Shown: piece after piece, positions 31,946 through 62,932 of the stretch | Layout: every line of letters begins with the position of its first letter | Numbering within the stretch: position 1 is the stretch's first letter | From: Alphaproteobacteria bacterium | Lineage (GTDB): Bacteria; Pseudomonadota; Alphaproteobacteria; G965222575 | Length of the DNA stretch: 64,000 nt | NCBI GenBank assembly: GCA_965222575.1 | Contig: OZ244958.1 | Coordinates: 1-64,000, forward strand | Reading direction: 5' to 3' | Translations under genes and position numbers: made by a program | Notes under the pieces: generated by a model | What the model was told of the DNA's origin: nothing | The model's database searches: none | What the model saw: only the letters and a program-made list of their open reading frames with translations

Positions 31946-31947
31946 AG

Positions 31948-33702: not shown

Positions 33703-33703
33703 G

Positions 33704-34381: not shown

Positions 34382-34397
34382 CCTTTCCTATCTTCTC

Positions 34398-37498: not shown

Positions 37499-37504
37499 GA
37501 TATA

Positions 37505-37645: not shown

Positions 37646-37668
37646 TGTTACTCTCCATATTGACCCTA

Positions 37669-37697
37669 AGTATACACAATTGTGTAGAAAAATGCAA
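37669..37697 (-). promoter_or_regulatory. TA operon promoter with palindromic operator
   Basis: TTGCAT-N17-TATACT with extended TG; perfect palindrome TACACAATTGTGTA at 37673-37686. Confidence 0.6.
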
Positions 37698-37731
37698 ATC
37701 TCTAAAGAGAGGACTAGAAAGACTTTTCGTC

Positions 37732-37760
37732 TTGACTTCTCCTTAAATTTCTTCTATAGA
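37732..37760 (+). promoter_or_regulatory. putative sigma70 promoter of riboswitch-btuB
   Basis: TTGACT-N17-TATAGA immediately before the riboswitch. Confidence 0.5.
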
Positions 37761-37764
37761 AACT

Positions 37765-37960
37765 AGTGCTAGAGGTGACGGTTTTTCACAAGCCGTAAAA
37801 AGGGAAGTATGGTGCGGAATTCCTCCAAAACCATCGCTGCTCCCGCAACTGTAGGCGACGAGCCTCATAGTCAAAGTACCCACTGACCGCAAAGCGTACG
37901 CGGTTGGGAAGGAAGACTGTGAAGCGTACAACTCGCAAGCCAGGAAACCTGCCTCTACGC
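37765..37960 (+). promoter_or_regulatory. cobalamin (AdoCbl) riboswitch
   Basis: AAAAGGGAAG..GGTG, GCTGCTCCCGCAACTGTA, CCACTG...GGGAAGG and B12 box AGCCAGGAAACCTGCC, upstream of a TonB-dependent receptor. Confidence 0.95.
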
Positions 37961-38061
37961 CATCATCGTACCTGCTACACGGGAAGCGTACAGGAACGTC
38001 AACGTTCAGGTGATGTACAACAAATCTGCCCCATCCCGTTGGCTAGAGAATAAGATTAGGT

Positions 38062-39933: not shown

Positions 39934-39961
39934 ATGTCTTTACCGGTTATTAAAAAAACAC

Positions 39962-39990
39962 TTGAAAATCCATAATATTTTTGTTATAAT
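39962..39990 (+). promoter_or_regulatory. near-consensus sigma70 promoter of the S8 protease array
   Basis: TTGAAA-N17-TATAAT with extended -10 TG. Confidence 0.7.
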
Positions 39991-40034
39991 TCCAAGACCC
40001 GTTGCCTTCTAGTAAACTGAAGCAAACACATACC

Positions 40035-42818
40035 ATGAAAAAATTCTTGTGGACACTCCCTCTAGTCTGCTTTCTCCCTCTATTAGTAGGCTGTGGAGGT
40101 AGTGGTGGTGGCGGTAGCAGTGGTGGTGGTGGCGGCCAAGTTAACCAAACGACTGGTACTGGTGAAGACGACTCTGGCGGTAACACTCTTGTCCAGAACC
40201 CTAGCCCTCCTATTCCCCCTATCCAAACCCCTCCTGTTGTGACCATCCCTGACTCTGACCCCCCCCTTGTCCAAGATACTCCGGAGGAAGTCGAGGAGAA
40301 AAAATTCGCAGCTCTTGTGACGCGCACTAGGGCAGCAGCGGCAGCGGTAAAATTTCAGATACAACGTCCTACCGAAGCGGACATCGCAAGCTTTCCCATC
40401 ATCAAAAGCAAAGAATTTAAAGACTCTGCTTACTGGACAAATAAAAATGATAAAAACTACATCCTAAGCTTTAGAGTTAGCCGCGAGTATAAAGGCAACA
40501 AATTTGTCTATGATGTACTAGGCTTATCGGAAGTTTATGCTCGGAATATCACTGGAAAATATATGAGTGGCATCTCTCAAGGGGAGCCTGTGAAAATCGG
40601 CGTCTGGGATTCAGGCATAACAAAAAGCGCTTTGAATTACAGAATCAGCAGAGAAAAACACCATGATACCTTAAAAACCCGAGTTACAGGGGTTTCGGTA
40701 GAAAACATGAATGAAAATGGTGATACTATCGATAAGGATGTCAAACTGTCTGACAAAGATACGCTTCTACGGGGGACAGTGATTGCTGCCCTGATTGCTG
40801 CTGGGAAAGATTATAGCATTGACAGAGGAGGCGACTATGAAGGCATACATGGCGTAGCCTACGACGCAACCCTCTTTTCTGTTGCCCAAAAATTATCAAT
40901 AGGTACAAGAGACATAGATACAAGAGATAATGCTGGAAAGACAATAGACCTAGAAAAAGTCGTAAAAAGATTTGTGAAAGAGGGCGTAAAAGTCCTCAAC
41001 ATAAGCTTTAACGACCAAAATGCGCCTCCTATTGCAGGCGGGCCGGACTGGTTTACCCCTTCAATGATTAAATCCTTAAAAGACGCTGACATTGTGACAG
41101 TCATGACGGCAGGACAGGTTTCACGAAACGAACCTTGGTATCCGGGTACAAAAGCATACGGCGCAGGAATGAAAGGATATGGATTAGTCATTGTAGAAGC
41201 CACAGCAGACAATAAAAAAGATAGGAAGAATGGGGAAGAATTTATTAAGCAAACCGATGTTACTGACAAAATCTTTCTTGGAAAACCACCAGACGTCATC
41301 ATTAATGGGGTTTCACACTCTTATAGCGGTAGCAACAGTGCTGCCTGTGGAGAGGAGTGGAAGTATTGCCTCACTGTCATCACACAGTGGTTTGGAAGCG
41401 GAAGCCCCGGAAGCAGCGCGGGGCTTCAATCACCACGCGCTTACCTTGCTCAGGATAAAAAGGGCGATAGTATCACAGAAAGAAAAACGAATGACTCTCC
41501 TGTTGTAACAGGAGCTGGTGCCGCTCTTGCAAGCGGAGCAGTGGCGTTATTACGGGGGGCTTATCCTACATTAAAAGGCAATGAGATTGTTGCTCTTTTG
41601 CTGGATTCTGCTATCAAACCACCAAAAGACACGCTCCTTGCTGACAAAGAGCAGTGGCGCGCAAAGTTCGGACGGGGTATTTTAAGTGTCAAAGAAGCAC
41701 TGAAACAATCTTTTGAAGCAGCGGTTCCCGCGCAAACTGCTAGTTCTTATGAGGCTACTGGGTTTTCTCTTTCTGCAGGAGGAGTGCGTGTAGCCCCCAG
41801 TCTTGGTGCCTTACCTCTTTTGAAACCGCTCAAGGGCAATACTCCCTTACAGATTTTGTTTTTTGATAAGTTCAGAGACCCTAATAGATATTGGGTACAA
41901 GACATAAACGATACATTTCTGTCTTTTGCTTCAAGAGGGGAAGAGAAGCCTGTGTTGTCTTTCTTTTCTTCTGTTTCCAGCACACTAAAGGCAGAAGTTG
42001 ACAAAGGGAGATTGTTGTTGAATAAGGAAGAGGGGAAAATGGCTTATGAAGGGGTGTTAGGAGAGGTGCCTTATCGTGTAGGGATTGGAGGAGAAATACT
42101 AGAGGAAGAGGATAGAGTATTAGCCTTAGCGTCTCACGGAGACCTTTTGGAGGAGAAGCGGTCTTTTTCATTAGGGTCTGGTTTTTACTTAGGGTTTGCT
42201 CAAGGAGAAAAAGAGGGGTATCGTGTGTATAGTGGATATCGTAAGACATTCGGGAGTGGGTTTTTGTATGGGGAAGCTGGTATTGTGAGAGAAGGGGAAG
42301 CCTTTTTAGGAGGGAGAGGTACAGCCTTTATGGAGTTTTCTAATGGAGGGAGGACTTGGTATGGGAGGATACAGGGGCGAATGCGTGTTGGGGGATTTGA
42401 GATGAATGTTGCGGCTTATATGGGGCGTAGTTTTTCTGGAGGGGAGGGGTCTAGGAGCAGTTGGTTAAGGCTTAAAGAAGGGAGAAGCCAAAGTGGGGGC
42501 ATCAGTATTAAAAGGGGGTTATCAAGAAAGAGAAGTATAGAGCTTGGGGCGCTTTTCCCTCTTAAAAGCTCTTATGTGGGAGAGATGTCTCAATTGGAGG
42601 TCTTAAAAGGCGACCTATTAGGGACTTTGCGTTGGTCACAACATGATGTAAGATTGTCCTCAGAAGGAAGAGAAAAGCTTTTTTATGGCTCTTATACGCA
42701 AGTCGTGAAGACAGGAGGGAAGATACACCTATCCTTCGGAGTGAGACTACAAAGAAACCATGTCCCTAATAGGGTACCGGAAAGCTTTTACCTCTTACAA
42801 TATCGGCGTGCTTTCTAA
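40035..42818 (+). CDS. S8 subtilase-like lipoprotein, copy 1 (catalytic His and Ser lost) with C-terminal OM-type domain
   Basis: Lipobox LVGC; IGVWDSG; LLRGTVIAA in place of HGT; GAGAA in place of GTSMA; shared C-terminal module ending YRRAF. Confidence 0.85.
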   Translation: MKKFLWTLPLVCFLPLLVGCGGSGGGGSSGGGGGQVNQTTGTGEDDSGGNTLVQNPSPPIPPIQTPPVVTIPDSDPPLVQDTPEEVEEKKFAALVTRTRAAAAAVKFQIQRPTEADIASFPIIKSKEFKDSAYWTNKNDKNYILSFRVSREYKGNKFVYDVLGLSEVYARNITGKYMSGISQGEPVKIGVWDSGITKSALNYRISREKHHDTLKTRVTGVSVENMNENGDTIDKDVKLSDKDTLLRGTVIAALIAAGKDYSIDRGGDYEGIHGVAYDATLFSVAQKLSIGTRDIDTRDNAGKTIDLEKVVKRFVKEGVKVLNISFNDQNAPPIAGGPDWFTPSMIKSLKDADIVTVMTAGQVSRNEPWYPGTKAYGAGMKGYGLVIVEATADNKKDRKNGEEFIKQTDVTDKIFLGKPPDVIINGVSHSYSGSNSAACGEEWKYCLTVITQWFGSGSPGSSAGLQSPRAYLAQDKKGDSITERKTNDSPVVTGAGAALASGAVALLRGAYPTLKGNEIVALLLDSAIKPPKDTLLADKEQWRAKFGRGILSVKEALKQSFEAAVPAQTASSYEATGFSLSAGGVRVAPSLGALPLLKPLKGNTPLQILFFDKFRDPNRYWVQDINDTFLSFASRGEEKPVLSFFSSVSSTLKAEVDKGRLLLNKEEGKMAYEGVLGEVPYRVGIGGEILEEEDRVLALASHGDLLEEKRSFSLGSGFYLGFAQGEKEGYRVYSGYRKTFGSGFLYGEAGIVREGEAFLGGRGTAFMEFSNGGRTWYGRIQGRMRVGGFEMNVAAYMGRSFSGGEGSRSSWLRLKEGRSQSGGISIKRGLSRKRSIELGALFPLKSSYVGEMSQLEVLKGDLLGTLRWSQHDVRLSSEGREKLFYGSYTQVVKTGGKIHLSFGVRLQRNHVPNRVPESFYLLQYRRAF

Positions 42819-42835
42819 TACCAAGTAGTACAAAA

Positions 42836-45445
42836 ATGAGAGAGTTCAGGAATACCCTTTTTGTTATAGCTTTATCTTTGTGTGTTGTAGCACTAGAAGG
42901 CTGTGGAGGTAGCGGCGGTGGTGGTAGTAGTAGCGGTGGCAGTGGTGGTGATACTAGTGAAACAACAAGTACGGGTACTAGTGGAACAAATACCCCTGGC
43001 AACTATGAGCGCGCTCTTAATGGTGAGAAGGTGAATGCTGTTTTTCCACTTCAAAAACCCGAAGGCTCTACAGATTCTGATGAAGACTTCATCGATAGCT
43101 TCAAAACAGACGAATACAAGAAAAACGGCTTCCTTTATGATTTTCTAGACCTGCGGCAATTCTATGCCCGAGGCATAACAGGAAAGGGCATCACTATTGG
43201 TATATGGGATTCAGGCTTCGACCCCGCACAGATAGGAGATGATACACTAAAGGACAGAACCAAAGGCTTTGCGCTATCAAATGACCCTGACAACTACCGA
43301 CTAAGACCTGATAAAACAATAGTGGTGACACTACCAGATAAACCACCACAGGTCTTGACATTTAATGATGAGAGACTTAAGACTTATGATTTCCCCCTTA
43401 CAGAAGACTTTGATGACGACACCTCCCCCAACCATGGCACACAAATGCTTTCCTTTATTGCTGCCGGGAAAGAGGGCTATGGTATACATGGCGTAGCCTA
43501 TGAGGCTTCGGCCTTTGTTATTGCGAACCCCTCAAATAACTTCCCACTCGACAGCATAACAGAAGGGGTAATAGGATACGGCAACAAGTTCATACCGGCG
43601 TTGCATCTCTGGGAATCCCAAGGGGTGAAAGTGGTCAATCTTAGTCTAACTTTGGACTTCGATGGGGCATCGGTGAACACTCAGACAGTGATGACAAACC
43701 TGATGACAAAAAAGGTACCAAAAGCATTAAAAGACCTAGATATTATCCTTGTCATAGCAGCAGGAAACGACGGATATGACGAAAATCCTGCTTTTCCGGG
43801 GCGCGCGGTGACAGAGATGAACGGGTGGGGATTAGTCATCACAGAAGCCGTTGTGTTAGCAACGGGAAAGTCTCGCACCTATACAGAAACTTCAGTTCAA
43901 AACCGATATAATCTCCTTAAAGAAAAGACCTCTGCCTTAATCACTGACGATAAGCTACCACCCTATATACAGGATAAAACAGGCCAGATTCTCTTAAGAA
44001 TGTATGACACAGGAAACAGCAACCCCTGTGGAAGTGCGAAAGCCTTTTGCCTCACTGTTTTAACCACAGCCCACGGAGCCTTAAGCGACGCAGTAGATAA
44101 GCCTAAAGTCTATATTAAGGGCAAAGATGATATTACCAAAGATGAAACAATAGTAGGCTCTTCTATGGCGACAGCTATAACAACTGGGGTCATAGCGTTG
44201 TTACGACAAGCTTATACCAAATTAGAAGGCAATGAGATTGTGAAGCTTATGTTAGAGAGCGCTCATAAAATACAGGGGAAGGAAGAGATATACGGACAAG
44301 GGATTTTAAGCCCCTGGAGAGCCCTTCTTCATCATTTTGGAAAGAAGACGGTTGTGGGGACAACTTCTAGTTCTTATGAGGCTACTGGGTTTTCTCTTGA
44401 TGAAGGAGAAGTGCGTGTAGCCCCCAGTCTTGGTGCCTTACCTCTTTTGAAACCCCTCAAGGGCAATACCCCCTTACAGATTTTGTTTTTTGATAAGTTC
44501 AGAGACCCTAATAGATACTGGGTACAAGACATAAATGATACGTTTCTGTCTTCTGTTTCAAGAGGGGAAGAGAAGCCTGTGTTGTCTTTCTTTTCTTCTG
44601 TTTCCAGCACACTAAAGGCACAAGTTGGCAAAGGGAGATTGTTGTTGAATAAGGAAGAGAAGAAGATGGCTTATGAAGGGGTATTAGGAGAGGTGCCTTA
44701 TCGTGTAGGGATTGGAGGAGAGGTACTAGAGGAAGACGATAGAGTATTAGCCTTAGCGTCTCACGGAGACCTTTTGGAGGAGAAGCGGTCTTTTTCATTA
44801 GGGTCTGATTTTTATTTAGGGTTTGCTCAAGGAGAAAGAGAGGGGTATCGTGTGTATAGCGGGTATCGTAAGACCTTTGGGAGTGGTTTTTTGTATGCGG
44901 AAGCTGGTATTGTGAGAGAAGGGGAAGCCTTTTTAGGAGGGAGAGGTACAGCCTTTATGGAGTTTTCTAATGGAGGGAGGACTTGGTATGGGAGGATACA
45001 GGGGCGAATGCGTGTTGGGGGATTTGAGATGAATGTTGCGGCTTATATGGGGCGTAGTTTTTCTGGAGGGGAGGGTTCTCAGAGCAGTTGGTTAAGGCTT
45101 AAAGAAGGGAGAAGCCAAAGTGGGGGCATCAGTGTTAAAAGGAGTTTATCAAGGGATAGAAGTATAGAGCTTGGGGTACTTTTCCCTCTTAAAAGCTCTT
45201 ATGTGGGAGAGATGTCTCAATTGGAGGTCTTAAAAGGCGACCTATTAGGGACTTTGCGTTGGTCACGGCACGATGTAAGATTGTCCTCAGAAGGAAGAGA
45301 AAAGCTTTTTTATGGCTCTTATACGCAAGTCGTGAAGACAGGAGGGAAGATACACCTATCCTTCGGAGTGAGACTACAAAGAAACCATGTCCCTAATAGG
45401 GTACCGGAAAGCTTTTACCTCCTACAATATCGGCGTGCTTTCTAA
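42836..45445 (+). CDS. S8 serine peptidase lipoprotein, copy 2 (subfamily A)
   Basis: LEGC lipobox; WDSG, HGTQM, AAGND, GSSMAT; shared C-terminal module. Confidence 0.9.
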   Translation: MREFRNTLFVIALSLCVVALEGCGGSGGGGSSSGGSGGDTSETTSTGTSGTNTPGNYERALNGEKVNAVFPLQKPEGSTDSDEDFIDSFKTDEYKKNGFLYDFLDLRQFYARGITGKGITIGIWDSGFDPAQIGDDTLKDRTKGFALSNDPDNYRLRPDKTIVVTLPDKPPQVLTFNDERLKTYDFPLTEDFDDDTSPNHGTQMLSFIAAGKEGYGIHGVAYEASAFVIANPSNNFPLDSITEGVIGYGNKFIPALHLWESQGVKVVNLSLTLDFDGASVNTQTVMTNLMTKKVPKALKDLDIILVIAAGNDGYDENPAFPGRAVTEMNGWGLVITEAVVLATGKSRTYTETSVQNRYNLLKEKTSALITDDKLPPYIQDKTGQILLRMYDTGNSNPCGSAKAFCLTVLTTAHGALSDAVDKPKVYIKGKDDITKDETIVGSSMATAITTGVIALLRQAYTKLEGNEIVKLMLESAHKIQGKEEIYGQGILSPWRALLHHFGKKTVVGTTSSSYEATGFSLDEGEVRVAPSLGALPLLKPLKGNTPLQILFFDKFRDPNRYWVQDINDTFLSSVSRGEEKPVLSFFSSVSSTLKAQVGKGRLLLNKEEKKMAYEGVLGEVPYRVGIGGEVLEEDDRVLALASHGDLLEEKRSFSLGSDFYLGFAQGEREGYRVYSGYRKTFGSGFLYAEAGIVREGEAFLGGRGTAFMEFSNGGRTWYGRIQGRMRVGGFEMNVAAYMGRSFSGGEGSQSSWLRLKEGRSQSGGISVKRSLSRDRSIELGVLFPLKSSYVGEMSQLEVLKGDLLGTLRWSRHDVRLSSEGREKLFYGSYTQVVKTGGKIHLSFGVRLQRNHVPNRVPESFYLLQYRRAF

Positions 45446-45465
45446 TACTAGGCAGTACAGAAAAA

Positions 45466-48306
45466 ATGAGAGAGTTCAGGAATATCCTTTTTGTTATAGC
45501 TTTATCTTTGTGTGTTGTTGCACTAGAAGGCTGTGGCGGTAGTAGTGGTGGCGGTGGTGGTGGTGGTGAAACAACATATACACCCCCGCCCCTAAGACTG
45601 CCAAAAACTGATGCTGCCAAGAGCAACTATGGGCGCGCTCGTAGTGGTGAGGATGTGAATAATGTTTTTCCACTTACAGATACGGATGAAGACTTTATCG
45701 AGAGCTTCAAAACAACGGAGTATAAAGAAACAGGCGGGGCTGTTTATGACGCACTAGGCTTACGGTATTTCTATGCAAGAGGCTTGACTGGGGAAGGAAT
45801 GGAAGTTGCCGTACTGGATAAAGGCTTCAGCAGAGCGCATGCCGAAACAGCCGACGCCGATACCTCAAAAATAGATAGCTTACAATCCAGGATGTTTTGG
45901 CTCGATATACTAGTAGAAGGGAAGAACCTAAAGGACAACAACAAGCATACCTCATCACCACATGGCACCTACATGAGTATGATTATAGCTGCTGGGAAAG
46001 ATGATGTTAAACAACATGGCATAGCCTACAATGCTGAGGTCTATCATTTTAAAATACTTCACAAGCTGGACCCTTTCAAAATTTTGAGCAAAAATGGGCA
46101 GAAAAAACTAACCAAGGAGAACGAAAGGCGCGCATACAACCGACAAGTGGAAGCATTTGGAGTACCAAATAAGAATAATCACGAAATAGTTTCTGTTTAT
46201 AGCCTCAGATACGCAACCGACTTGCACGCAAAACTCAGTCAAGAAGATCAGAAGAAGTTGGAAAAAGCGGGACCAGAATACACCAAAAAGCTCTATTACG
46301 CATATCTAAAAGAACCTCACGAAAAGGGCATGAAGGTGATCAATATGAGTATGTTTTCTCCTACTGGTATAAAAAACATAAGTGGTGTGTATCAACTTCC
46401 AGACGATTTTAACCCCGATAACCCCGTCGGCGGGTTCCAGAACTTGATAAAGACTTATCAAGAGAATATGAAGAAACCGCTAAACGACCGCGACAGGTTT
46501 GATATTGTTCTATCGTTATGCGCAGGCAACGAGGGTATCCCTCAGCTTGCTAGCCCTGCTAACATAGCGCACTGGCTTGAGGTAAAAGATGAAAAAACAG
46601 GAGAACATCTAGGAGGATACGCCATTACCTCCACTAGTGTCGCCTCCACGGAATTGGGTCATCTTTTACCGGGAGGGACTTTTGATCCCAATAAAATAAT
46701 CTCTAATGTGAGAGACGCTGGATATAAGACCAATTTTCCCAATAAATGTGGAACGGGGAAATCCCAAAAATTTTGTCTAGCAGTCGTTGAAACAATCATA
46801 AACGTAAACCCCGATGAATCCCCCATTTTATGGGGGTGGAAACCGGAGAAAGCCTCTGAGAAGTGCGAAGCATATCGAGCAAGTGACAAAACAAAGACAG
46901 GTAATGATAATCCGTGCGAGGACTGGATTTTACCGAGATTTCCTGAAAATAACCCTATATTTTCTAAAGAAGCAATAAAAAAAATGATTAGATATGAAAC
47001 CACCAATCGCCCCCTGGTTGGAACTTCTGCTACGACAGCTGTAGTAAGTGGGGTAGCAACTTTGTTACGACAAGCTTTTCCTAAATTAAAGGCCTATGCG
47101 ATTGTGAAGCTTATGTTAGAGAGCGCTCATAAAATGCCGCAGAAACGTCTATACGGACAAGGGATTTTAAGCCCCTGGAGAGCCCTTCTTCTTCCTTTTG
47201 GACTGAAGACGGTTGTGGGGACAACTTCTAGTTCTTATGAGGCTACTGGGTTTTCTCTTTCTGCAGGAGGAGTGCGTGTATCGTCTAGTCTTGGTGCCTT
47301 ACCTCTTTTGAAACCGCTCAAGGGCAATACTCCCTTACAGATTTTGTTTTTTGATAAGTTCAGAGACCCTAACAGATATTGGGTACAAGACATAAACGAT
47401 ACATTTCTGTCTTCTGCTTCAAGAGGGGAAGAGAAGCCTGTGTTGTCTTTCTTTTCTTCTGTTTCCAGTACACTAAAGGCAGAAGTTGGTAAAGGGAGAT
47501 TGTTGTTGAATAAGGAAGAGGGGAAGATGGCTTATGAAGGGGTGTTAGGAGAGGTGCCTTATCGTGTAGGGATTGGAGGAGAGGTACTAGAGGAAGAAGA
47601 TAGAGTATTAGCCTTAGCGTCTCACGGAGACCTTTTGGAGGAGAAGCGGTCTTTTTCATTAGGGTCTGGTTTTTACTTAGGGTTTGCTCAAGGAGAAAGA
47701 GAGGGGTATCGTGTGTATAGTGGATATCGTAAGACATTCGGGAGTGGTTTTTTGTATGGGGAAGCTGGTATTGTGCGAGAAGGGGAAGCCTTTTTAGGAG
47801 GGAGAGGTACAGCCTTTATGGAGTTTTCTAATGGAGGGAGGACTTGGTATGGGAGGATACAGGGGCGAATGCGTGTTGGGGGATTTGAGATGAATGTTGC
47901 GGCTTATATGGGGCGTAGTTTTTCTGGAGGGGAGGGTTCTCAGAGCAGTTGGTTAAGGCTTAAAGAAGGGAGAAGCCAAAGTGGGGGCATCAGTGTTAAA
48001 AGGAGTTTATCTAGGAAGAGAAGTATAGAGCTTGGGGTACTTTTCCCTCTTAAAAGCTCTTATGTGGGAGAGATGTCTCAATTGGAGGTCTTAAAAGGCG
48101 ACCTATTAGGGACTTTGCGTTGGTCACAACATGATGTAAGACTATCCTCAGAAGGAAGAGAAAAGCTTTTTTATGGCTCTTATACGCAAGTCGTGAAGAC
48201 AGGGGGGAAGATACACCTATCCTTCGGAGTGAGACTACAAAGAAACCATGTCCCTAATAGGGTACCGGAAAGCTTTTACCTCTTACAATATCGGCACACT
48301 TTCTAA
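45466..48306 (+). CDS. S8 serine peptidase lipoprotein, copy 3 (subfamily B)
   Basis: LEGC; VAVLDKG, HGTYM, CAGNE, GTSATT; shared C-terminal module. Confidence 0.9.
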   Translation: MREFRNILFVIALSLCVVALEGCGGSSGGGGGGGETTYTPPPLRLPKTDAAKSNYGRARSGEDVNNVFPLTDTDEDFIESFKTTEYKETGGAVYDALGLRYFYARGLTGEGMEVAVLDKGFSRAHAETADADTSKIDSLQSRMFWLDILVEGKNLKDNNKHTSSPHGTYMSMIIAAGKDDVKQHGIAYNAEVYHFKILHKLDPFKILSKNGQKKLTKENERRAYNRQVEAFGVPNKNNHEIVSVYSLRYATDLHAKLSQEDQKKLEKAGPEYTKKLYYAYLKEPHEKGMKVINMSMFSPTGIKNISGVYQLPDDFNPDNPVGGFQNLIKTYQENMKKPLNDRDRFDIVLSLCAGNEGIPQLASPANIAHWLEVKDEKTGEHLGGYAITSTSVASTELGHLLPGGTFDPNKIISNVRDAGYKTNFPNKCGTGKSQKFCLAVVETIINVNPDESPILWGWKPEKASEKCEAYRASDKTKTGNDNPCEDWILPRFPENNPIFSKEAIKKMIRYETTNRPLVGTSATTAVVSGVATLLRQAFPKLKAYAIVKLMLESAHKMPQKRLYGQGILSPWRALLLPFGLKTVVGTTSSSYEATGFSLSAGGVRVSSSLGALPLLKPLKGNTPLQILFFDKFRDPNRYWVQDINDTFLSSASRGEEKPVLSFFSSVSSTLKAEVGKGRLLLNKEEGKMAYEGVLGEVPYRVGIGGEVLEEEDRVLALASHGDLLEEKRSFSLGSGFYLGFAQGEREGYRVYSGYRKTFGSGFLYGEAGIVREGEAFLGGRGTAFMEFSNGGRTWYGRIQGRMRVGGFEMNVAAYMGRSFSGGEGSQSSWLRLKEGRSQSGGISVKRSLSRKRSIELGVLFPLKSSYVGEMSQLEVLKGDLLGTLRWSQHDVRLSSEGREKLFYGSYTQVVKTGGKIHLSFGVRLQRNHVPNRVPESFYLLQYRHTF

Positions 48307-48326
48307 TACTAGGCAGTACAGAAAAA

Positions 48327-51188: not shown

Positions 51189-51208
51189 TACTAGGCAGTA
51201 CAGAAAAA

Positions 51209-54061: not shown

Positions 54062-54078
54062 TACCAAGTAGTACAAAA

Positions 54079-57000
54079 ATGAGAGAGTTCAAGAATATTC
54101 TTTTTGTTATGGCTTTATCTTTGTGTGTTGTAGCACTAGAAGGCTGTGGAGGGTAGCGGCGGTGGTGGTAGTAGCGGTGGCAGTGGTGGTGATACTAGTG
54201 GAACAACAAGTACGGGTACTAGTGGAACAACTACGCCCCCGACCCCACCTACCCCGCCTCCTGTTGACAATAAAATTGATGATACTAAAGCTCCTGTTGA
54301 CGATAAAGCTCCTGTTGACGATAAAGCTCCTGTTGACGATAAAGTTGTTGATGGTGGTGGAATAACAACTACGCCCCCGACCCCACCTACCCCGCCTCCT
54401 GTTGACGATAAAGTTGTTGAGGCTATAAAACTGTTGACGATTGTTGATGACGATAAAACCGTTGATGATACTAAAGCTGTTGATGCTAAAGCTACTGTTG
54501 ACGATAAAATTGATGATGCTAAAGTTGTTGATGAAGGTGTTTTTGACGATAAAACTGTTGTTGACGATAAAATTGAGGCTATAAAACTGTTGACGATTGT
54601 TGTTGACGATAAAATTGATGATACTAAAGCTGTTGTTGACAATAAAGTTGTTGATGCTAAAGCTGTTGATGAAGGTGTTTTTGACGATAAAACTGTTGTT
54701 GACGATAAAATTGAGGCTATAAAACTGTTGACGATTGTTGTTGACGATAAAATTGATGATACTAAAGCTGTTGTTGACAATAAAGTTGTTGATGCTAAAG
54801 CTGTTGATGAAGGTGTTTTTGACGATAAAACTGTTGTTGACGATAAAATTGAGGCTATAAAACTGTTGACGATTGTTGTTGACGATAAAATTGATGATAC
54901 TAAAGCTGTTGTTGACAATAAAGTTGTTGATGCTAAAGCTCCTGTTTTTGACGATAAAACTGTTGTTGTTGAGGCTATAAAACTGTTGACGATTGTTGTT
55001 GACGTTGATGACGATAAAACTGTTGTTGACGATACAATTGATGACGATAAAACCGTTGATGATAATAAAACTGTTGTTGACGATAAAGTTGTTGATGCTA
55101 AAGCTGTTGATGAAGGTGTTTTTGACGATAAAACTGTTGTTGACGATACAATTGATGACGATAAAACCGTTGATGATAATAAAACTGTTGTTGACGATAA
55201 AGTTGTTGATGCTAAAGCTGTTGATGAAGGTGTTTTTGACGATAAAACTGTTGTTGACGATAAAATTGATGCTATAAAACTGTTGACGATTGTTGATGAC
55301 GATAAAATTGATGATGCTAAAGCTGTTGTTGATGGTCGTATTTTTGAAGATAGCAAAATCAGAAATGCCCTCGCTCTTAGCAATCCTGAGAAGAAGACTG
55401 TCAATGATATTTTTCCAATTAAAAAGCACAGCCGTTTAACGGATCAAAGGTTTCTCCTTAGCTTCAAAACAACGGAATACCTGAAAAACGGGTTTCTTTA
55501 TGATTTTCTAGAACTGCGGCAATTCTATGCCCGAGGCATAACAGGAAAGGGCATCACTGTTGGCATATGGGATACAGGCTTCGACCCCAATGTTATGGGA
55601 AAGGATACGCTAAAGGCGAGAACCAAAGGCTTTGGGATAAAATATCTTCTAAGCAATAGCGAAATAGTGGTCTTGTCGATAGAGCCGAGTAAACGCATTC
55701 AACTTGATGATCTTAGACTTAAGACTTATGATTTCCCCCTTACAGACGACTTTGATGACGACTTCCATGGCACACAAATGCTTTCCTTTATTGCTGCCGG
55801 GAAAGAGAACTATGGTATGCATGGCGTAGCCTATGAGGCTTCGGCCTTTGTTATTGCGAACCCCTCAAATAACTTCCCACTCGACAGCATAACAAATGGG
55901 GGGGTAATAGGATACGGCAACAAGTTCATACCGGCGTTGCATCTCTGGGAATCCCAAGGGGTGAAAGTGGTCAATCTTAGTATGAGTTTGGACTTCGATG
56001 GGGCATCTTCGAACACTCAGACAGTGATGACAAACCTGATGGAAGAAAAGGTACCAACAGCATTAGAAAAGCTAGATATTATCCTTGTCATAGCAGCAGG
56101 AAACGACGGATATGACAATCCTGCTTTTCCGGGGCGCGCGGTGACAGAGATGAAGGGGTGGGGATTAGTCATCACAGAAGCCGTTGTGTTAGCAACGGGA
56201 GAGTCTCTCACCTATACAGAAACTTCAGTTCAAAACCGATATAATCTCCTTAAAGAAAAGACCTCTGCCTTAATCACTGACGATAAGCTACCACCCTATA
56301 TACAGGGTAGGAGTACAACAGGCCAGATTCTCTTAAGAATGTATGACACAGGAAACAGCAATCCTTGTGGAAGTGCGAAAAACTTTTGCCTCACTGTTTT
56401 AACCACAGCCCACGGAGCCTTCACCACATCTATGCCTCAATCCTATATTAACGGCAAAGATAAAACAATAGTAGGCTCTTCTTTGGCGACAGCTGTAACA
56501 ACTGGGGTCATAGCGTTGTTACGACAAGCTTATACCAAATTAGAAGGCAATGAGATTGTGCAACTTCTGTTAGAGAGCGCTCATAAAATACAGGGGAAGG
56601 CGGGCATCGGGGAGAAAGCAGTTGAATCGGACACAATATACGGACAAGGGATTTTAAGCCCCTGGAGAGCCCTTCTTGTTCCTTTTGAAGAAGCGGTTGT
56701 AGGGACAACTTCTAGTTCTTATGAGGCCGCTGGGGTTTCTCTTTCTGCAGGAGGAGTGCGTGTAGCCCCCAGTCTTGGTGCCTTACCTCTTTTGAAACCG
56801 CTCAAGGGCAATACTCCCTTACAGATTTTGTTTTTTGATAAGTTCAGAGACCCTAATAGATATTGGGTACAAGACATAAACGATACGTTTCTGTCTTCTG
56901 TTTCAAGAGGGGAAGAGAAGCCTGTGTTGTCTTTCTTTTCTTCTGTTTCCAGCACACTAAAGGCGCAAGTTGGCAAAGGGAGATTGTTGTTGAATAAGGA

Positions 57001-57790
57001 AGAGGGGAAGATGGCTTATGAAGGGGTGTTAGGAGAGATACCTTATCGTGTAGGGATTGGAGGAGAATTTGTAGAGGAAGAGGATAGAGTATTAGCCTTA
57101 GCGTCTCACGGAGACCTTTTGGAGGAGAAGCGGTCTTTTTCATTAGGGTCTGATTTTTCCTTAGGGTTTGCTCAAGGAGAAAGAGAGGGGTATCGTGTGT
57201 ATAGTGGATATCGTAAGACCTTTGGGAGTGGTTTTTTGTATGCGGAAGCTGGTATTGTGAGAGAAGGGGAAGCCTTTTTAGGAGGGAGGGGGACAGCCTT
57301 TATGGAGTTTTCTAATGGAGGGAGGACTTGGTATGGGAGGATACAGGGGCGAATGCGTGTTGGGGGATTTGAGATGAATGTTGCGGCTTATATGGGGCGT
57401 AGTTTTTCTGGAGGGGAGGGTTCTCAGAGCAGTTGGTTAAGGCTTAAAGAAGGGAGAAGCCAAAGTGGGGGCATCAGTGTTAAAAGGAGTTTATCTAGGA
57501 AGAGAAGTATAGAGCTTGGGGCGCTTTTCCCTCTTAAAAGCTCTTATGTGGGAGAGATGTCTCAATTGGAGGTCTTAAAAGGCGACCTATTAGGGACTTT
57601 GCGTTGGTCACAACATGATGTAAGACTATCCTCAGAAGGAAGAGAAAAGCTTTTTTATGGCTCTTATACGCAAGTCGTGAAGACAGGAGGGAAGATACAC
57701 CTATCCTTCGGAGTGAGACTACAAAGAAACCATGTCCCTAATAGGGTACCGGAAAGCTTTTACCTCCTACAATATCGGCGTGCTTTCTAA
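54079..57790 (+). pseudogene. S8 serine peptidase copy 6 (subfamily A), +1 frameshift right after the lipobox
   Basis: ATG 54079 MREFKNILFV...EGC; GGAGGGTAG versus GGAGGTAG in sibling copies gives a TAG stop at 54154; the remainder (54146-57790) is open with WDTG, HGTQM, AAGND, GSSLAT. Confidence 0.85.
54230..55335 (+). repeat. low-complexity VDDK repeat region with 138-bp (x~3) and 114-bp (x2) higher-order units
   Basis: GTTGACGATAAA-type motifs; units at 54533/54671/54809 and 55013/55127. Confidence 0.95.
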
Positions 57791-57807
57791 TACCAGGTAG
57801 TACAAAA

Positions 57808-60465
57808 ATGAGAGAGTTCAAGAATATTCTTTTTGTTATGGCTTTATCTTTGTGTGTTGTAGCACTAGAAGGCTGTGGAGGTAGCGGCGGCGGTGGTGGT
57901 AGTAGCGGTGGCGGTGGAACAAACACGCCTGTTGTTGACAACTATGCGTTAGCTCTTAAGGCTTCTTCCTCTTTTGAGGAGAAGAATCCTTGGCCTACTG
58001 TCAATAAAGTTTTTCCACTTAAAAACCCCGAAGACTCTACAGATTCTGATGAAGCGTTTCTCAAGAGCTTCAAAACAGAGGAATACCAGAAAAACGGCTT
58101 CCTTTATGATTTTCTAGAACTGCCGGAATTCTATGCCCGAGGCATAACAGGAGAGGGCATCACTGTTGGCATATGGGATTCAGGCTTCGACCCCAATGTT
58201 ATGGGAAAGGATACGCTAAAGGCGAGAATCAAAGGAGTTAAGCTAGAAAATCTAACACCTGATAAGCAAATAATGACGTCGCTACCCTATCCACATCTCG
58301 TTCCATTTGACCATTATAGACTTCCTAATTACGAGTTCCCCCTTACAGAAGACTTTGATGACGACATCTCCCATGGCACAACAATGCTTTCCTTTATTGC
58401 TGCCGGGAAAGAGGGGGATGGTATACATGGCGTAGCCTATGAGGCTTCGGCCTTTGTTATTGCTGCAGACACTTTCTCCACGGACATAATTACACCAGAG
58501 GAAGCGGTAGTAGAAGGCGACAAGTTCATACCGGCGCTTCATCTCTGGAAATCCCGAGGGGTGAAAGTGGTCAATTTTAGTATGGGTTTTCGGTTAGAGA
58601 TGTTAGAGGAGGCAGCGAATAAGGAGATAGAACAACTGAAATCATTGCCAGGGATGACACAAGAGGCTTTGGAAGCATACCTCAAGAAGCTGGTGCCTTT
58701 TATTAAGGAAAGGGTAAAAAATCTGATGACAGAAAAGGTACCAGAAGCATTAGAAGCTCTAGATATTATCCTTGTCATATCAGCAGGAAACGACGGATAT
58801 AACGAAAACCCTGACAAAAACTACGAAAATCCTGCTTTTCCGGGGCGCGCGGTGACAGAGATGAACGGGTGGGGATTAGTCATCACAGAAGCCGTTGTGT
58901 TACACAAGGAAATGTCTTTTACCTTTTCAGATCCTTCAGATCAAAAACAATATGAGATCCTTAAAGAAAAGACCTCTGCCGAAATCACTGACGATAAGCT
59001 ACAATCTTATACACAGGATAAAACAGGCCAGATTCTCTTAAAAATGTATGAGACAGGAAACAGCAATCCCTGTGGAAGTGCTAAAGACTTTTGCCTCACT
59101 GTTTTAACCACAGCCCTCTTCCCCACCTACCTAAATGAGCCTAAAGTACATCTTAAAGACAAAGATGAAACAATAGAAGGCTCTTCTATGGCGACAGCTA
59201 TAACAACTGGGGTCATAGCGTTGTTACAACAAGCTTATTCCACATTAAAAGGCAATGAGATTGTGCAGCTTCTGTTAAAGAGCGCTCATAAAATACCGGG
59301 GAAGGAAGAGATATACGGACAAGGGATTTTAAGCCCCCGGAGAGCCCTTCTTCTTCCTTTTGAAGCAGCGGTTCCCGCGCACACTGCTAGTTCTTATGAG
59401 GCTACTGGGTTTTCTCTTGATGCAGGAGGAGTGCGTGTAGCCCCCAGTCTTGGTGCCTTACCTCTTTTGAAACCGCTCAAGGGCAATACTCCCTTACAGA
59501 TTTTGTTTTTTGATAAGTTCAGAGACCCTAATAGATATTGGGTACAAGACATAAACGATACATTTCTGTCTTCTGTTTCAAGAGGGGAAGAGAAGCCTGT
59601 GTTGTCTTTCTTTTCTTCTGTTTCCAGCACACTAAAGGCACAAGTTGGCAAAGGGAGATTGTTGTTGAATAAGGAAGAGAGGAAGATGGCTTATGAAGGG
59701 GTATTAGGAGAGGTGCCTTATCGTGTAGGGATTGGAGGAGAAGTACTAGAGGAAGAAGATAGAGTATTAGCCTTAGCGTCTCACGGAGACCTTTTGGAGG
59801 AGAAGCGGTCTTTTTCATTAGGGTCTGGTTTTTCCTTAGGGTTTGCTCAAGGAGAAAAAGAGGGGTATCGTGTCTATAGTGGATATCGTAAGACATTTGG
59901 GAGCGGTTTTTTGTATGCGGAAGCTGGCATTGTGAGAGAAGGGGAAGCCTTTTTAGGAGGGAGAGGTACAGCTTTTATGGAGTTTTCTAATGGAGGGAGG
60001 ACTTGGTATGGGAGGATACAGGGGCGAATGCGTGTTGGGGGATTTGAGATGAATGTTGCGGCTTATATGGGGCGTAGTTTTTCTGGAGGGGAGGGGTCTA
60101 GGAGCAGTTGGTTAAGGCTTAAAGAAGGGAGAAGCCAAAGTGGGGGCATCAGTATTAAAAGGGGGTTATCAAGAAAGAGAAGTATAGAGCTTGGGGCGCT
60201 TTTCCCTCTTAAAAGCTCTTATGTGGGAGAGATGTCTCAATTGGAGGTCTTAAAAGGCGACCTATTAGGGACTTTGCGTTGGTCACAACATGATGTAAGA
60301 TTGTCCTCAGAAGGAAGAGAAAAGCTTTTTTATGGCTCTTATACGCAAGTCGTGAAGACAGGAGGGAAGATACACCTATCCTTCGGAGTGAGACTAGAAA
60401 GAAACCATGTCCCTAATAGGGTACCGGAAAGCTTTTACCTCCTACAATATCGGCACACTTTCTAA
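57808..60465 (+). CDS. S8 serine peptidase lipoprotein, copy 7 (subfamily A)
   Basis: LEGC; WDSG, HGTTM, SAGND, GSSMAT; shared C-terminal module. Confidence 0.9.
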   Translation: MREFKNILFVMALSLCVVALEGCGGSGGGGGSSGGGGTNTPVVDNYALALKASSSFEEKNPWPTVNKVFPLKNPEDSTDSDEAFLKSFKTEEYQKNGFLYDFLELPEFYARGITGEGITVGIWDSGFDPNVMGKDTLKARIKGVKLENLTPDKQIMTSLPYPHLVPFDHYRLPNYEFPLTEDFDDDISHGTTMLSFIAAGKEGDGIHGVAYEASAFVIAADTFSTDIITPEEAVVEGDKFIPALHLWKSRGVKVVNFSMGFRLEMLEEAANKEIEQLKSLPGMTQEALEAYLKKLVPFIKERVKNLMTEKVPEALEALDIILVISAGNDGYNENPDKNYENPAFPGRAVTEMNGWGLVITEAVVLHKEMSFTFSDPSDQKQYEILKEKTSAEITDDKLQSYTQDKTGQILLKMYETGNSNPCGSAKDFCLTVLTTALFPTYLNEPKVHLKDKDETIEGSSMATAITTGVIALLQQAYSTLKGNEIVQLLLKSAHKIPGKEEIYGQGILSPRRALLLPFEAAVPAHTASSYEATGFSLDAGGVRVAPSLGALPLLKPLKGNTPLQILFFDKFRDPNRYWVQDINDTFLSSVSRGEEKPVLSFFSSVSSTLKAQVGKGRLLLNKEERKMAYEGVLGEVPYRVGIGGEVLEEEDRVLALASHGDLLEEKRSFSLGSGFSLGFAQGEKEGYRVYSGYRKTFGSGFLYAEAGIVREGEAFLGGRGTAFMEFSNGGRTWYGRIQGRMRVGGFEMNVAAYMGRSFSGGEGSRSSWLRLKEGRSQSGGISIKRGLSRKRSIELGALFPLKSSYVGEMSQLEVLKGDLLGTLRWSQHDVRLSSEGREKLFYGSYTQVVKTGGKIHLSFGVRLERNHVPNRVPESFYLLQYRHTF

Positions 60466-60474
60466 TACCAGAAG

Positions 60475-61908
60475 ATGACAGCGCTAAAGCCTATCCTTTT
60501 TGTTATAGCTTTATCTTTGTGTGTTGTTCCCCATAGCAACTATGCGCGCGCTCTTAGGGGTGATAAGGTGAATGATGTTTTTCCACTTCAAAAAGAAGGC
60601 TATGCAGGTTCTGATGAAGCGTTTCTCAAGAGCTTCAAAACAGAGGAATACCAGAAAAACGGCTTCCTTTATGATTTTCTAGAACTGCCGCAATTCTATG
60701 CCCGAGGCATAACAGGAGAGGGCATCACTGTTGGCATATGGGATTCAGGCTTCAACCCCGATGTTATGGGAGAGGATACGCTAAAGGAGAGAACCAAAGG
60801 CATTAAGCTAGAACACATAAAGACGGATAACTCTATAGAGATACCCCCCTACACCCTGAGATTAGATGATAGTAGACTTGCTCATCAAGATTTCCTCCTT
60901 ACAGAAGACATTGATATCCCCCTCTCTCTTTCTCACTCCGGTTATCATGGCACAAAGATGCTTTCCTTTATTGCTGCCGGGAAAGAGGGCTATGGTATAC
61001 AGGGTGTAGCGTATCAGGCTTCGGCCTTTGTTATTGCTGAACAAACCAATTCATTCCCCTACAAAAAGCTCATACCGGCGCTTCACCTCTGGAAATCCCA
61101 AGGGGTGAAAGTGGTCAATTTTAGTCTGACTTTGCAGTTAGAACGTGTCTCTCCAAAGATGCATTACCGCTTGTCTCACCTAACAAGAACAGAACTCCCA
61201 AAAGCATTAGAAGCTCTAGATATTATCCTTGTCCTGGCAGCAGGAAACGAAGGATATAACAAACACTACTCAAATCCTGCTTTTCCGGGAAATGTGGATA
61301 TGAAGGGGTGGGGATTAGTCATCACAGAAGCCGTTGTGTTACCAACGGGAGAGGATTTGAGAGTTAAAGATAAAAAACGATATGAGATCATTAAAGACAA
61401 GACCTCTACCTCAATCACTGACCATAAGCTACAATCCTATATACAGGATAAAACAGGCCAGATTCTCTTAAGAATGTATGACTTAGGAAACAGCAATCCC
61501 TGTGGAAGCGCGAAAGACTTTTGCCTCACTGTTTTAACCACAGCCACCTCTCCTAGCGGCTCAACATATATGCCTCAAGCCTATCTTAACGGCAAAGATA
61601 AACCAGAAGGGGGCTCTTCTATGGCAACAGCCATAGCAACTGGGGTCATCGCTTTGTTACAACAAGCTTATCCCACATTAAACGGCAAGGAAATTGTGCA
61701 GCTTCTGTTAGAGAGCGCTCATAAAATCCCGGGGAAGGAACATATATACGGACAAGGGATTTTAAGCCCATGGAGAGCCCTTCTTCTTGCTCTTGAAAAA
61801 AAGACACCACGCACCACTCTCTCTTACCCCACTTTCGTCCCTCTTTATGCAGGAGACCAGACTATAGGAAAATCTTCACTATTCCGCCCGAAAAAAAACA
61901 AACATTAA
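60475..61908 (+). CDS. S8 serine peptidase copy 8 (subfamily A), lacking lipobox, Gly linker and C-terminal module
   Basis: WDSG, HGTKM, AAGNE, GSSMAT; signal ends SLCVV|PHSNY; similarity to siblings stops after GILSPWRALLL. Confidence 0.85.
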   Translation: MTALKPILFVIALSLCVVPHSNYARALRGDKVNDVFPLQKEGYAGSDEAFLKSFKTEEYQKNGFLYDFLELPQFYARGITGEGITVGIWDSGFNPDVMGEDTLKERTKGIKLEHIKTDNSIEIPPYTLRLDDSRLAHQDFLLTEDIDIPLSLSHSGYHGTKMLSFIAAGKEGYGIQGVAYQASAFVIAEQTNSFPYKKLIPALHLWKSQGVKVVNFSLTLQLERVSPKMHYRLSHLTRTELPKALEALDIILVLAAGNEGYNKHYSNPAFPGNVDMKGWGLVITEAVVLPTGEDLRVKDKKRYEIIKDKTSTSITDHKLQSYIQDKTGQILLRMYDLGNSNPCGSAKDFCLTVLTTATSPSGSTYMPQAYLNGKDKPEGGSSMATAIATGVIALLQQAYPTLNGKEIVQLLLESAHKIPGKEHIYGQGILSPWRALLLALEKKTPRTTLSYPTFVPLYAGDQTIGKSSLFRPKKNKH

Positions 61909-61954: not shown

Positions 61955-62932
61955 ATGAAACTCCCCTTCCTAAGACCTACTCCTCCTACTACTGCCCTTA
62001 CCCCACAAATAGCGCACCCTAAAACAACTGCTCCTAAAAAGGGAACTCATCATATCACCCCCTCCACACAACCCTCAGCAGAACCAACCCTCAATAATCC
62101 CCTCTTAGAATATGAAAAACGCCTAAAGGAATTAGACAAACATATAAGCATTCTAGAGAGTCATCTAGACAACCCAACAGAAGAGATAAAAGCCCATAAC
62201 CTCAGTGCTATCGAAGAAAGACTAGCGCAACTCTCCGAGCTTAAACACACAAAAGCAAAAGAGTTTGGATACACAGCAACAGACTTAAATAGCATCAATA
62301 AAATGGTACAAGGTTTTGGGTTTAAGATAGAGCTTTTATTAGACCGTAACTACAAGCCGCAAAACCTTCTGGAGGTACAAAAGACCCTAGAGGCTACCAT
62401 TGAAAAGCTAGGGGGAGAAAAGACCATGACACAACAACACGCTACTAACCAAGTCAACGAAACATTTCAAGCCCTTAATCTTCTAAAAACCCAAAACAAG
62501 AAAACACCCCACACCCCTCGTGCTAGTGTTCTAAAAAAACGATTGAAAACCTGCAATCATTTCCCCTTGCGCCATTTCTTCCCCGTTACAAAATGGCAAA
62601 AAGAACTCACAAAACTTAATGACTTGTCAAAAAGGCTACCGGAAGCGAAACAGACCTTTCAAAACGCTCTACAATTACTGGACTCTTTAGAAGCATACGA
62701 GAACCTGCAACAAAAACTAAAAACTACTGAAACAGCAACACCAGACGATATCCCCGCATTGGAAAAAGAACGGGAGAAAGCAACACAAATGTTGGAACTT
62801 CTTAATGAAGAAAAGGGACTAGAGGAGTTAAAAAAAGCCCTAGAACAAAAACAACACCTGTCTCAACAGCTGAAAGACCTCATAGAAACGAGCGCAACTC
62901 CTACACACATGGCAGAGCCAACCATAGAATAA
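61955..62932 (+). CDS. hypothetical coiled-coil protein
   Basis: 325-aa ORF, P/T-rich N-terminus followed by E/K/L heptad-like helices; no family recognised. Confidence 0.7.
   Translation: MKLPFLRPTPPTTALTPQIAHPKTTAPKKGTHHITPSTQPSAEPTLNNPLLEYEKRLKELDKHISILESHLDNPTEEIKAHNLSAIEERLAQLSELKHTKAKEFGYTATDLNSINKMVQGFGFKIELLLDRNYKPQNLLEVQKTLEATIEKLGGEKTMTQQHATNQVNETFQALNLLKTQNKKTPHTPRASVLKKRLKTCNHFPLRHFFPVTKWQKELTKLNDLSKRLPEAKQTFQNALQLLDSLEAYENLQQKLKTTETATPDDIPALEKEREKATQMLELLNEEKGLEELKKALEQKQHLSQQLKDLIETSATPTHMAEPTIE

Follow-up and report, generated by a model that had tools for sequence, protein, structure and literature searches.

In subtilase autotransporters, an S8A protease passenger of ~400 amino acids is followed by a beta-helix of ~200-248 residues and then by a translocator. 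NalP and SphB1 are lipidated as well, and the 13 characterised members listed in the accessible parts of two accounts are mainly beta- and gammaproteobacterial (PMC9977779, PMC9289746). Here we describe a related arrangement in an alphaproteobacterium. In the window, i.e., the first 64,000 nucleotides (nt) of contig OZ244958.1 (assembly GCA_965222575.1), the plus strand at 40035-61908 carries eight consecutive open reading frames (ORFs), all eight with a Peptidase_S8 domain (PF00082; expectation value, E, 1.2e-11 to 3.7e-22), and seven of them end in a nearly invariant C-terminal module (C-module). On balance, and with moderate confidence, we favor the reading that one operon encodes a family of outer-membrane-anchored subtilases resembling the lipidated autotransporters, in which the S8 cassettes are under diversifying selection on a homogenised anchor.

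The PF00082 scores of the eight copies were 44.9-79.4 bits against a gathering cut-off of 21.8, and a tblastn search over the window recovered exactly eight S8 domains and seven C-modules. From copy 1 to copy 8 the genes are separated by 17, 20, 20, 20, 17, 17 and 9 nt. The array is real and far beyond chance. The N-terminal parts of the proteins are 35-75% identical, and by identity they fall into three groups: copy 1, group A (copies 2, 6, 7 and 8) and group B (copies 3, 4 and 5). The eight copies are as follows.

40035-42818, plus strand: copy 1, with a canonical L-V-G-C lipobox, a Pro-rich tether, an S8 fold lacking the catalytic His, Asn and Ser (PF00082 E 1.2e-11), and the C-module
42836-45445, plus strand: copy 2 (group A), with L-E-G-C, a Gly/Ser tether, an active-type S8 domain and the C-module
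45466-48306, plus strand: copy 3 (group B), with an active-type S8 domain carrying large insertions, and the C-module
48327-51188, plus strand: copy 4 (group B), with an S8 domain and the C-module; its Asn motif was read from the translation
51209-54061, plus strand: copy 5 (group B), whose tether contains a Pro-rich repeat (51325-51410; 15 nt repeated 5.7 times)
54079-57790, plus strand: copy 6 (group A), with leader and lipobox (54079-54156) out of frame with a long ORF from 54146; S8 motifs intact
57808-60465, plus strand: copy 7 (group A), with an S8 domain and the C-module
60475-61908, plus strand: copy 8 (group A), short at both ends, i.e., without lipobox Cys, tether or C-module; S8 motifs intact

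The family profile matched subtilisins (E 1.7e-28), and it aligned with the passenger of the subtilase autotransporter Ssp (8e7f) in a single stretch covering profile positions 99-468 (E 1e-27). The start of the S8 domain gave weak matches to the NCBIfam EprS model. The catalytic Asp, His and Ser and the oxyanion Asn are present in copies 2-8. In copy 1 the Asp is kept, whereas Arg replaces His, Gln replaces Asn and Gly/Ala replaces Ser, hence copy 1 is a pseudoprotease. All eight copies have their own ATG and seven have a full leader. In copies 1-7 the hydrophobic leader ends in a Cys (L-V-G-C in copy 1, L-E-G-C in copies 2-7), and acylation of this residue is probable.

The ATG of copy 6 at 54079 opens the same signal peptide and Cys as in its paralogues. 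Relative to copies 1, 2, 4, 5 and 7, one extra G stands right after the Cys codon and leads to an in-frame TAG at 54154-54156. The remainder, 1214 codons, is read in another frame from 54146, and its module is 96-97% identical to the other modules. As assembled, the copy 6 product is predicted not to be exportable. The frameshift could be a recent mutation that makes copy 6 a pseudogene, an off-state, or a base-calling error. Programmed frameshifting was considered and set aside, because mutation or error is the simpler explanation for one additional base in a run of three G. The tether of copy 6 is repetitive as well:

54258-55336, plus strand: acidic tandem-repeat tether of copy 6, with periods of 18, 33, 114 and 138 nt; the 138-nt unit is repeated 3.3 times at 97% identity

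At the other end of the array, the DNA of copy 8 is homologous to copies 7 and 2 only as far as ~61797-61805, the S8/module junction.

An earlier note on this DNA, drawn from the sequence alone, had seen eight co-oriented S8 genes 9-20 bp apart behind one near-consensus promoter. The gaps, the PF00082 matches in all copies and a promoter-like site with 11 of 12 consensus positions (see below) agree with this, and its division of the proteases into three divergent groups was recovered by identity. It had further assigned a layout of lipobox, linker, S8 domain and module to seven copies; the module is indeed found in seven, but the full layout lies in one frame in only six, because the leader of copy 6 is frameshifted. 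The conserved D/H/N/S motifs that it described hold for copies 2-8 and not for copy 1, which keeps the Asp only. The earlier interpretation is right in outline and wrong in these two details, the dead copy 1 and the frameshift of copy 6.

The C-module, of 358 amino acids, ends seven of the eight copies, copy 8 being the exception, at these positions:

41742-42818, plus strand: C-module of copy 1
44369-45445, plus strand: C-module of copy 2
47230-48306, plus strand: C-module of copy 3
50112-51188, plus strand: C-module of copy 4
52985-54061, plus strand: C-module of copy 5
56714-57790, plus strand: C-module of copy 6
59389-60465, plus strand: C-module of copy 7

Between modules the DNA identity is 95.5-98.0%, and every module terminates in Y-R-[RH]-[AT]-F, in keeping with the near identity and the Y-x-x-x-F ending reported before. 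The terminal aromatic residue (Phe) follows alternating hydrophobic residues, and likewise in the distant relatives P0012, P0014 and P0015. AlphaFold2 was run on the module with an alignment of 16 rows (~5 distinct types), shallow because few relatives were found. The model had a predicted template modelling score (pTM) of 0.56, and residues 141-358 formed ~12-13 long antiparallel strands, with blocks at a predicted local distance difference test score (pLDDT) of 45-89. Single-sequence prediction (pLDDT 32.8) was unusable, and helices appeared solely there. When the model was compared with the PDB using Foldseek, ~38 of the 41 matches listed were membrane beta-barrels of 8 to 22 strands, among them porins, OpcA, TonB-dependent receptors, FapF, OmpG, FadL, KdgM, EstA (rank 22), the BrkA beta-domain (rank 37) and mitochondrial VDAC and TOM. 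The nearest language-model clusters were also barrels (porin, SlipAM, BBP2 and OmpG; scores 0.89-0.93), with low shared-feature counts, so that we take them as leads only. An hhalign comparison with the C-terminal 300 amino acids of Escherichia coli Ag43, YfaL and YpjA gave probabilities of ≤0.2%, while controls were also low: the positive controls reached 28.9% (Ag43 vs YfaL) and 0.9% (Ag43 vs YpjA), and four other barrels were likewise uninformative. This comparison was powerless because its positive controls failed. We conclude that the last ~215 residues of the module very probably form an outer-membrane beta-barrel, with a tentative strand number of about 12-13.

The constant part of the array does not coincide with the C-module. 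When the copies were aligned across the S8/module junction, identity jumped at the first codon of the module, from ~71% before it to 96% after it. High identity then ran past the stop codon, through the spacer and into the next leader with its Cys (85-92% mean pairwise), and collapsed in the Gly/Ser tether. One such junction is given as an example:

45446-45540, plus strand: conserved junction, consisting of stop codon, 17-20-nt spacer, and the next signal peptide with lipobox

This profile defines a conserved unit of ~1.2 kb that straddles the gene boundary: a module, the spacer behind it and the leader of the following gene. What varies is the cassette formed by tether and S8 domain. Across the 1074 nt of the seven modules there are 84 variable sites; 49 of these are informative and show 23 split patterns. 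In a four-gamete test on the modules 701 of 1176 site pairs failed, and such mosaicism points to repeated short-tract gene conversion, not to simple divergence after duplication. In the S8 domains of group A all three possible 2:2 splits were present, at 44, 19 and 9 of 72 sites.

Selection on the two parts was estimated by Nei-Gojobori counting of the ratio of nonsynonymous to synonymous substitution rates (dN/dS) with bootstrap intervals. Only ungapped codons were counted, because the alignment is uncertain in the most variable loops, and the module served as an internal control for the S8 domain of the same genes. For the module, dN/dS was 0.14-0.35 over all 21 pairs (ratio of means 0.23, mean dS 0.087) and 0.14-0.26 in the six within-group pairs, with upper bootstrap limits of ≤0.48. 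For the S8 domain, the three group B pairs gave 1.43, 1.77 and 1.66, and in all three the 95% bootstrap interval lay above 1; the six group A pairs gave 0.84-1.32. In sliding windows, the ratio of nonsynonymous to synonymous differences per site (pN/pS) exceeded 1 in most S8 windows and was below 0.6 in most module windows. No stop codon was seen in the S8 domains, where 6-15 per pair are expected under random substitution, and the 10-16 insertions or deletions (indels) per pair were all in frame. The missing stops and the frame-keeping indels exclude neutral decay or relaxed constraint. We conclude that: i) the module is under purifying selection, and ii) the group B proteases are under domain-wide positive selection, against a purified anchor.

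Relatives of the module are few. A word-based search of 5.8 billion clusters returned 10 proteins, five of the window itself and five close relatives; the contigs of the latter are 10-20 kb long and carry two family members each. With HMMER, the module matched six of 1.84 billion representative proteins at E≤0.001 and one at E≤1e-10, and four of the six also carry a subtilase or pseudo-subtilase domain. Among the distant matches, P0012, P0013 and P0014 have an S8 or S8-like domain followed by a homologous C-terminal part of ~210-360 residues, P0015 is a barrel-only fragment of 197 amino acids, and P0011 matches over a short N-terminal stretch only. A module-alignment scan of GTDB representative genome contigs, a collection that does not hold the genome of the window, gave 20 pattern matches, of which none was confirmed. 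The S8 domain of the array is isolated as well: in word-based searches, which also recovered P0012 and P0016, its outside relatives (three S8 proteins) were ≤27% identical.

The close relatives encode all three S8 groups. The dead domain of copy 1 has counterparts in P0006 (94% identity) and P0010 (92%), and module identity is 93-97%, whereas the best counterpart of any active domain reaches only 58-79%. From this contrast it can be deduced that the active cassettes turn over several times faster than the dead domain and the anchor. In the distant lineage, P0012 and P0016 share near-identical N-terminal ~190 and C-terminal ~450 residues around a highly divergent middle without catalytic motifs. 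These two proteins are not lipoproteins, since their leader is ordinary and lacks the Cys.

The array is flanked on its own strand by the following elements.

37756-37970, plus strand: cobalamin riboswitch (RF00174, 92.2 bits)
38062-39933, plus strand: divergent BtuB-like TonB-dependent receptor (TIGR01779 E 2.1e-42, far below cut-off; Plug domain)
39962-39990, plus strand: promoter-like site TTGAAA-17-TATAAT with a TG extension, 45 nt upstream of copy 1, matching 11 of 12 consensus positions
61955-62932, plus strand: ORF of 325 amino acids, 46 nt past copy 8, with a Pro/Thr-rich N-terminus followed by a Glu/Lys/Leu-rich stretch

The promoter-like site, judged by consensus match only, was the top plus-strand match within 37500-57400; promoter-like sites overall were at chance level (26 observed vs 28.1 expected). 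The end of the BtuB-like gene and the start of copy 1 are 101 nt apart. No plus-strand terminator-like site was found between the array genes, between the BtuB-like gene and copy 1, or between copy 8 and the downstream ORF. A TTGATA-18-GATATT sequence repeated inside each module was considered as an internal promoter and rejected, since it scores only 9 of 12, which is chance level. An antisense promoter-like site, TTAACA-17-TATAAT (11 of 12), is found at the equivalent position of all group B copies (46010-45982, 48898-48870 and 51819-51791, minus strand) and may have been inherited along with the paralogues. The 325-amino acid ORF, which has no Pfam family and whose sole match, to XopZ, is at chance level (E 0.025), may be a member of the subtilase operon.

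The contig has 1,215,846 bases, of which the array takes up 1.8%. Across the window the coding strand is very rich in G relative to C, and this bias tracks gene orientation: the skew is -0.24 to -0.44 at 1-24 kb, where most genes lie on the minus strand, mostly +0.19 to +0.25 (with +0.25 as the maximum) in the array, and -0.32 over a minus-strand gene at 62-64 kb. The window also encodes a methyl-accepting chemotaxis protein (3295-4737) and a full nuo operon (5481-14226), in which NuoD, F, G and H were identified; in a genome of ~1.2 Mb they argue against an extremely reduced obligate endosymbiont. In a genome-contig scan with NuoD, the best 80 of at least 583 confirmed matches were 68-75% identical and came mostly from diverse Alphaproteobacteria, with no close relative among them. 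An ORF of 666 amino acids at 23058-25058 had no Pfam match at E≤1e-5. The minus strand at 26864-36641 carries a complete type I-C CRISPR-Cas locus, which is notable in a 1.2-Mb genome.

34398-36641, minus strand: Cas3
33704-34381, minus strand: Cas5
31948-33702, minus strand: Csd1/Cas8c
31067-31945, minus strand: Cas7
30416-31042, minus strand: small ORF
29425-30579, minus strand: Cas1
29135-29428, minus strand: small ORF
~26864 to 28990: CRISPR array, ~32 copies of a 32-nt repeat beginning GTTTCAATCC

The following model is proposed. Each product would be exported by its Sec signal peptide and then probably acylated on the Cys that follows, and the C-terminal ~215 residues would form a beta-barrel in the outer membrane. 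Much as in type Va secretion, this barrel would let the S8 domain of the same protein pass through or alongside it to the surface, where a flexible tether, either Gly/Ser/Pro-rich or made of acidic repeats, would display the protease. The ~1.2-kb unit is held near-identical by purifying selection together with frequent gene conversion over short tracts, while the S8 cassettes are under diversifying selection. With constant units and diversifying S8 domains, the cell would make a set of proteases with a common device for export and anchoring but with different exposed surfaces and, probably, different specificities. Copy 1 is a conserved dead paralogue that probably acts as a binding, scaffold or regulatory partner, and copy 8 is a truncated end-of-array copy. 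The alphaproteobacterium, with its reduced genome of 1.2 Mb, is probably host-associated, and the likely purpose of the array is the degradation of host or prey proteins, escape from host recognition or inhibitors, or both.

Several observations weigh against this model. Two modules were searched and neither matched a Pfam family at E≤10, including Autotransporter (PF03797) and SlipAM (PF04575); no NCBIfam family, hence no NCBIfam autotransporter model, was matched at E≤0.1; and a profile search of PDB sequences gave one match, at E 3.6. PF03797 was also found in none of the five distant relatives (P0011-P0015). The AlphaFold2 model of the module has a mean pLDDT of only 53.9, with residues 1-140 below 50, so that a pore helix or autochaperone is not seen in it, and Foldseek returned no match at E≤0.001, with TM-scores of ≤0.39. 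In copies 2-7 the lipobox carries Glu at -2, which is atypical; Glu at this position of a lipobox is non-canonical. The S8 dN/dS of group A is not significantly above 1, as all six bootstrap intervals touch or include it, and all dN/dS values come from counting on recombining paralogues in a genome with a strong base-composition bias. Finally, surface exposure, acylation, transcription, protease activity, the export route and the biological antagonist are all inferred from the DNA.

The checks that the earlier note had named, i.e., profile searches, a structure prediction of the C-module and dN/dS per domain, gave a mixed picture for its comparison with NalP and SphB1. The order of parts and a predicted barrel (~12-13 strands over residues 141-358, with Foldseek matches that are mostly barrels, none of them at E≤0.001) fit that architecture, and Peptidase_S8 was found in all eight copies; the Autotransporter model was matched by neither of the two modules searched, and there is no room for a beta-helix stalk. 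For its diversified arsenal of proteases, the difference in dN/dS between the two domains (module 0.14-0.35, S8 0.84-1.77) is strong support. Its second suggestion, an antigenic-variation locus, does not hold in the classical form of one expression site with silent cassettes, as each gene of the operon comes with a start and a signal peptide of its own.

A less classical version of the latter has to be weighed. In it, the 1.2-kb junctions serve as homology arms, and unequal crossing-over and gene conversion reshuffle, delete, duplicate and switch off S8 cassettes between cells, with copy 6 as an off state. The mosaic structure of the constant unit (701 of 1176 site pairs incompatible) and of the group A S8 splits would be expected, and so would relatives that bear different cassettes on the same module (best matches 58-79%), with two family members on each 10-20-kb contig. 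In the P0012/P0016 lineage, too, constant ends enclose a variable middle, and copy 6 goes out of frame directly after the lipobox. However, the run that contains the extra base of copy 6 has only three G and is an atypical slippage tract, and the base may be a base-calling error. Every copy, moreover, is a complete gene that brings its own start and signal peptide, all of them behind one promoter, and there is no expression site with silent cassettes. We consider this reading unlikely, though the strongest of the alternatives. A bolder proposal, which we hold to be rather improbable, is that the module is not a divergent type Va translocator but a previously unrecognised self-export device, e.g., a small barrel, Slam-like or of another type, joined in one protein to the lipoprotein that it exports. 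The array would then be a built-in diversity generator, in which the 1.2-kb junctions drive recombination of protease cassettes under positive selection and the dead subtilase is an obligatory partner. The module occurs almost only behind subtilase or pseudo-subtilase domains, in two distant lineages that independently combine constant ends with a variable middle.

The barrel might instead only anchor the proteins, the lipidated S8 domains being periplasmic or nutritional peptidases whose divergence reflects subfunctionalisation, with no outside agent. Neither an autotransporter signature nor a beta-helix stalk was found, the N-terminal 140 residues of the module are of low confidence in the model, and a reduced genome may rely on imported peptides. 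Periplasmic housekeeping enzymes, though, would hardly be expected to show a dN/dS above 1 across a whole domain, as group B does, the active domains turn over fast between relatives, and the long flexible or repetitive tethers, up to ~400 residues in copy 6, suggest projection from the surface; we judge a periplasmic role to be doubtful. The proteases could also be tied to the upstream B12-riboswitch BtuB-like receptor as an accessory that frees cobalamin from host or environmental binding proteins. This is very improbable: the genes share a strand, lie 101 nt apart and have no terminator-like site between them, but being neighbors says little by itself, a near-consensus promoter precedes the array, and nothing in the array proteins points to cobalamin. 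Even less credit can be given to decaying paralogues or an assembly artefact. Copy 1 is dead, copy 6 frameshifted and copy 8 truncated, and the mean dN/dS of group A is near 1. Against this stand the lack of stops where 6-15 are expected per pair, the in-frame indels, purifying selection on the modules, the conservation of the copy 1 domain at 92-94% in relatives and the presence of all three groups there. Every module is, moreover, unique (84 variable sites) and lies between unique cassettes on a contig of 1,215,846 bases.

If our favored reading, a diversifying protease family on a shared outer-membrane anchor, is true, the anchor or export domain stands outside every family library and widens the range of type V-like secretion, in Alphaproteobacteria. 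The locus would also be a case of natural modular evolution within single genes, with an anchor at a dN/dS of ~0.2 beside an enzyme domain at 1.4-1.8. It is rare for a whole domain to exceed 1, and such values speak for an antagonist outside the cell, which could be host immunity, inhibitors or substrates that change. An array that occupies 1.8% of a 1.2-Mb genome suggests that the proteases are probably central to the life of this uncultured organism with a host or prey. They would be obvious targets for expression and substrate profiling. The most informative of the new results are the homogenised unit that straddles the gene boundaries, the positive selection on group B, the conserved pseudoprotease that heads the operon, and the rare, unclassified anchor.

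Some features of the array recall other surface systems. In EstA-type autotransporters a GDSL esterase passenger sits on a 12-strand barrel and there is no beta-helix. The array proteins are alike in that the enzyme domain is joined to the barrel without a long stalk, and EstA (3kvn) is in the Foldseek list at rank 22. Unlike EstA, they have a different passenger fold and no sequence similarity, and the structural match is weak (E 0.034, TMq 0.26). The polymorphic membrane proteins of Chlamydia, an organism with a small genome, are clustered autotransporter paralogues with variable passengers, some of them frameshifted. The array differs from these in that its passengers are enzymes, not repeat adhesins, its anchors are homogenised and ~96% identical, and its barrel family is unrecognised. 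A likeness to Slam is seen in the language-model neighbors of residues 148-358, which include SlipAM clusters (score 0.93, 133-142 shared features, counts below the level typical of true members). The array proteins, lipoprotein-type with a Gly-rich tether and encoded next to a TonB-dependent receptor gene, also resemble Slam cargo. Slam is a separate protein that is not fused to its cargo, and the module had no PF04575 match at E≤10.

A literature search found no description of a tandem lipoprotein-subtilase array with a shared barrel. Eight subtilase genes are reported from an alphaproteobacterial endosymbiont, a Phyllobacterium; in the part of that account available, they are scattered over a genome of 3.96 Mb with 58.9% G+C, and we regard them as unrelated (PMC9111515). 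In the Csp trio of Clostridioides difficile, as far as the accessible text of two papers describes it, the active CspB works with the pseudoproteases CspA and CspC in a spore germination cascade (PMC7200643, PMC6636752). As there, a conserved dead subtilase is encoded beside active paralogues. The Csp proteins, in contrast, are Gram-positive and have no membrane barrel, and regulation of the other copies by copy 1 of the array is only conjectural.

The closest comparison remains that with NalP of Neisseria meningitidis, SphB1 of Bordetella pertussis and 'Group 15', which in the available part of the source combine a signal peptide with Cys, an S8 passenger and a C-terminal outer-membrane domain (PMC9289746), as the array proteins appear to do. 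The S8 domain of the array, with its EprS-like start, aligns over its whole length with that of Ssp, as noted. Unlike Group 15, the array modules match neither PF03797 nor any other autotransporter model. No PATR or beta-helix Pfam family was found in the array proteins, and where the accessible accounts give a beta-helix of ~200-248 residues (PMC9977779, PMC9289746), these have ~150 low-confidence residues between the S8 domain and the predicted barrel, which leaves no room for such a stalk. The array proteins can be called autotransporter-like: they seem to resemble the lipidated subtilase autotransporters in their way of working, while membership in the NalP/SphB1 family is not established by sequence. 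NalP and SphB1 are from betaproteobacteria, whereas the host of the array is an alphaproteobacterium. And where Group 15 members are single genes in the accessible parts of both accounts (PMC9977779, PMC9289746), the array has eight tandem copies with a homogenised anchor, one of them catalytically dead.

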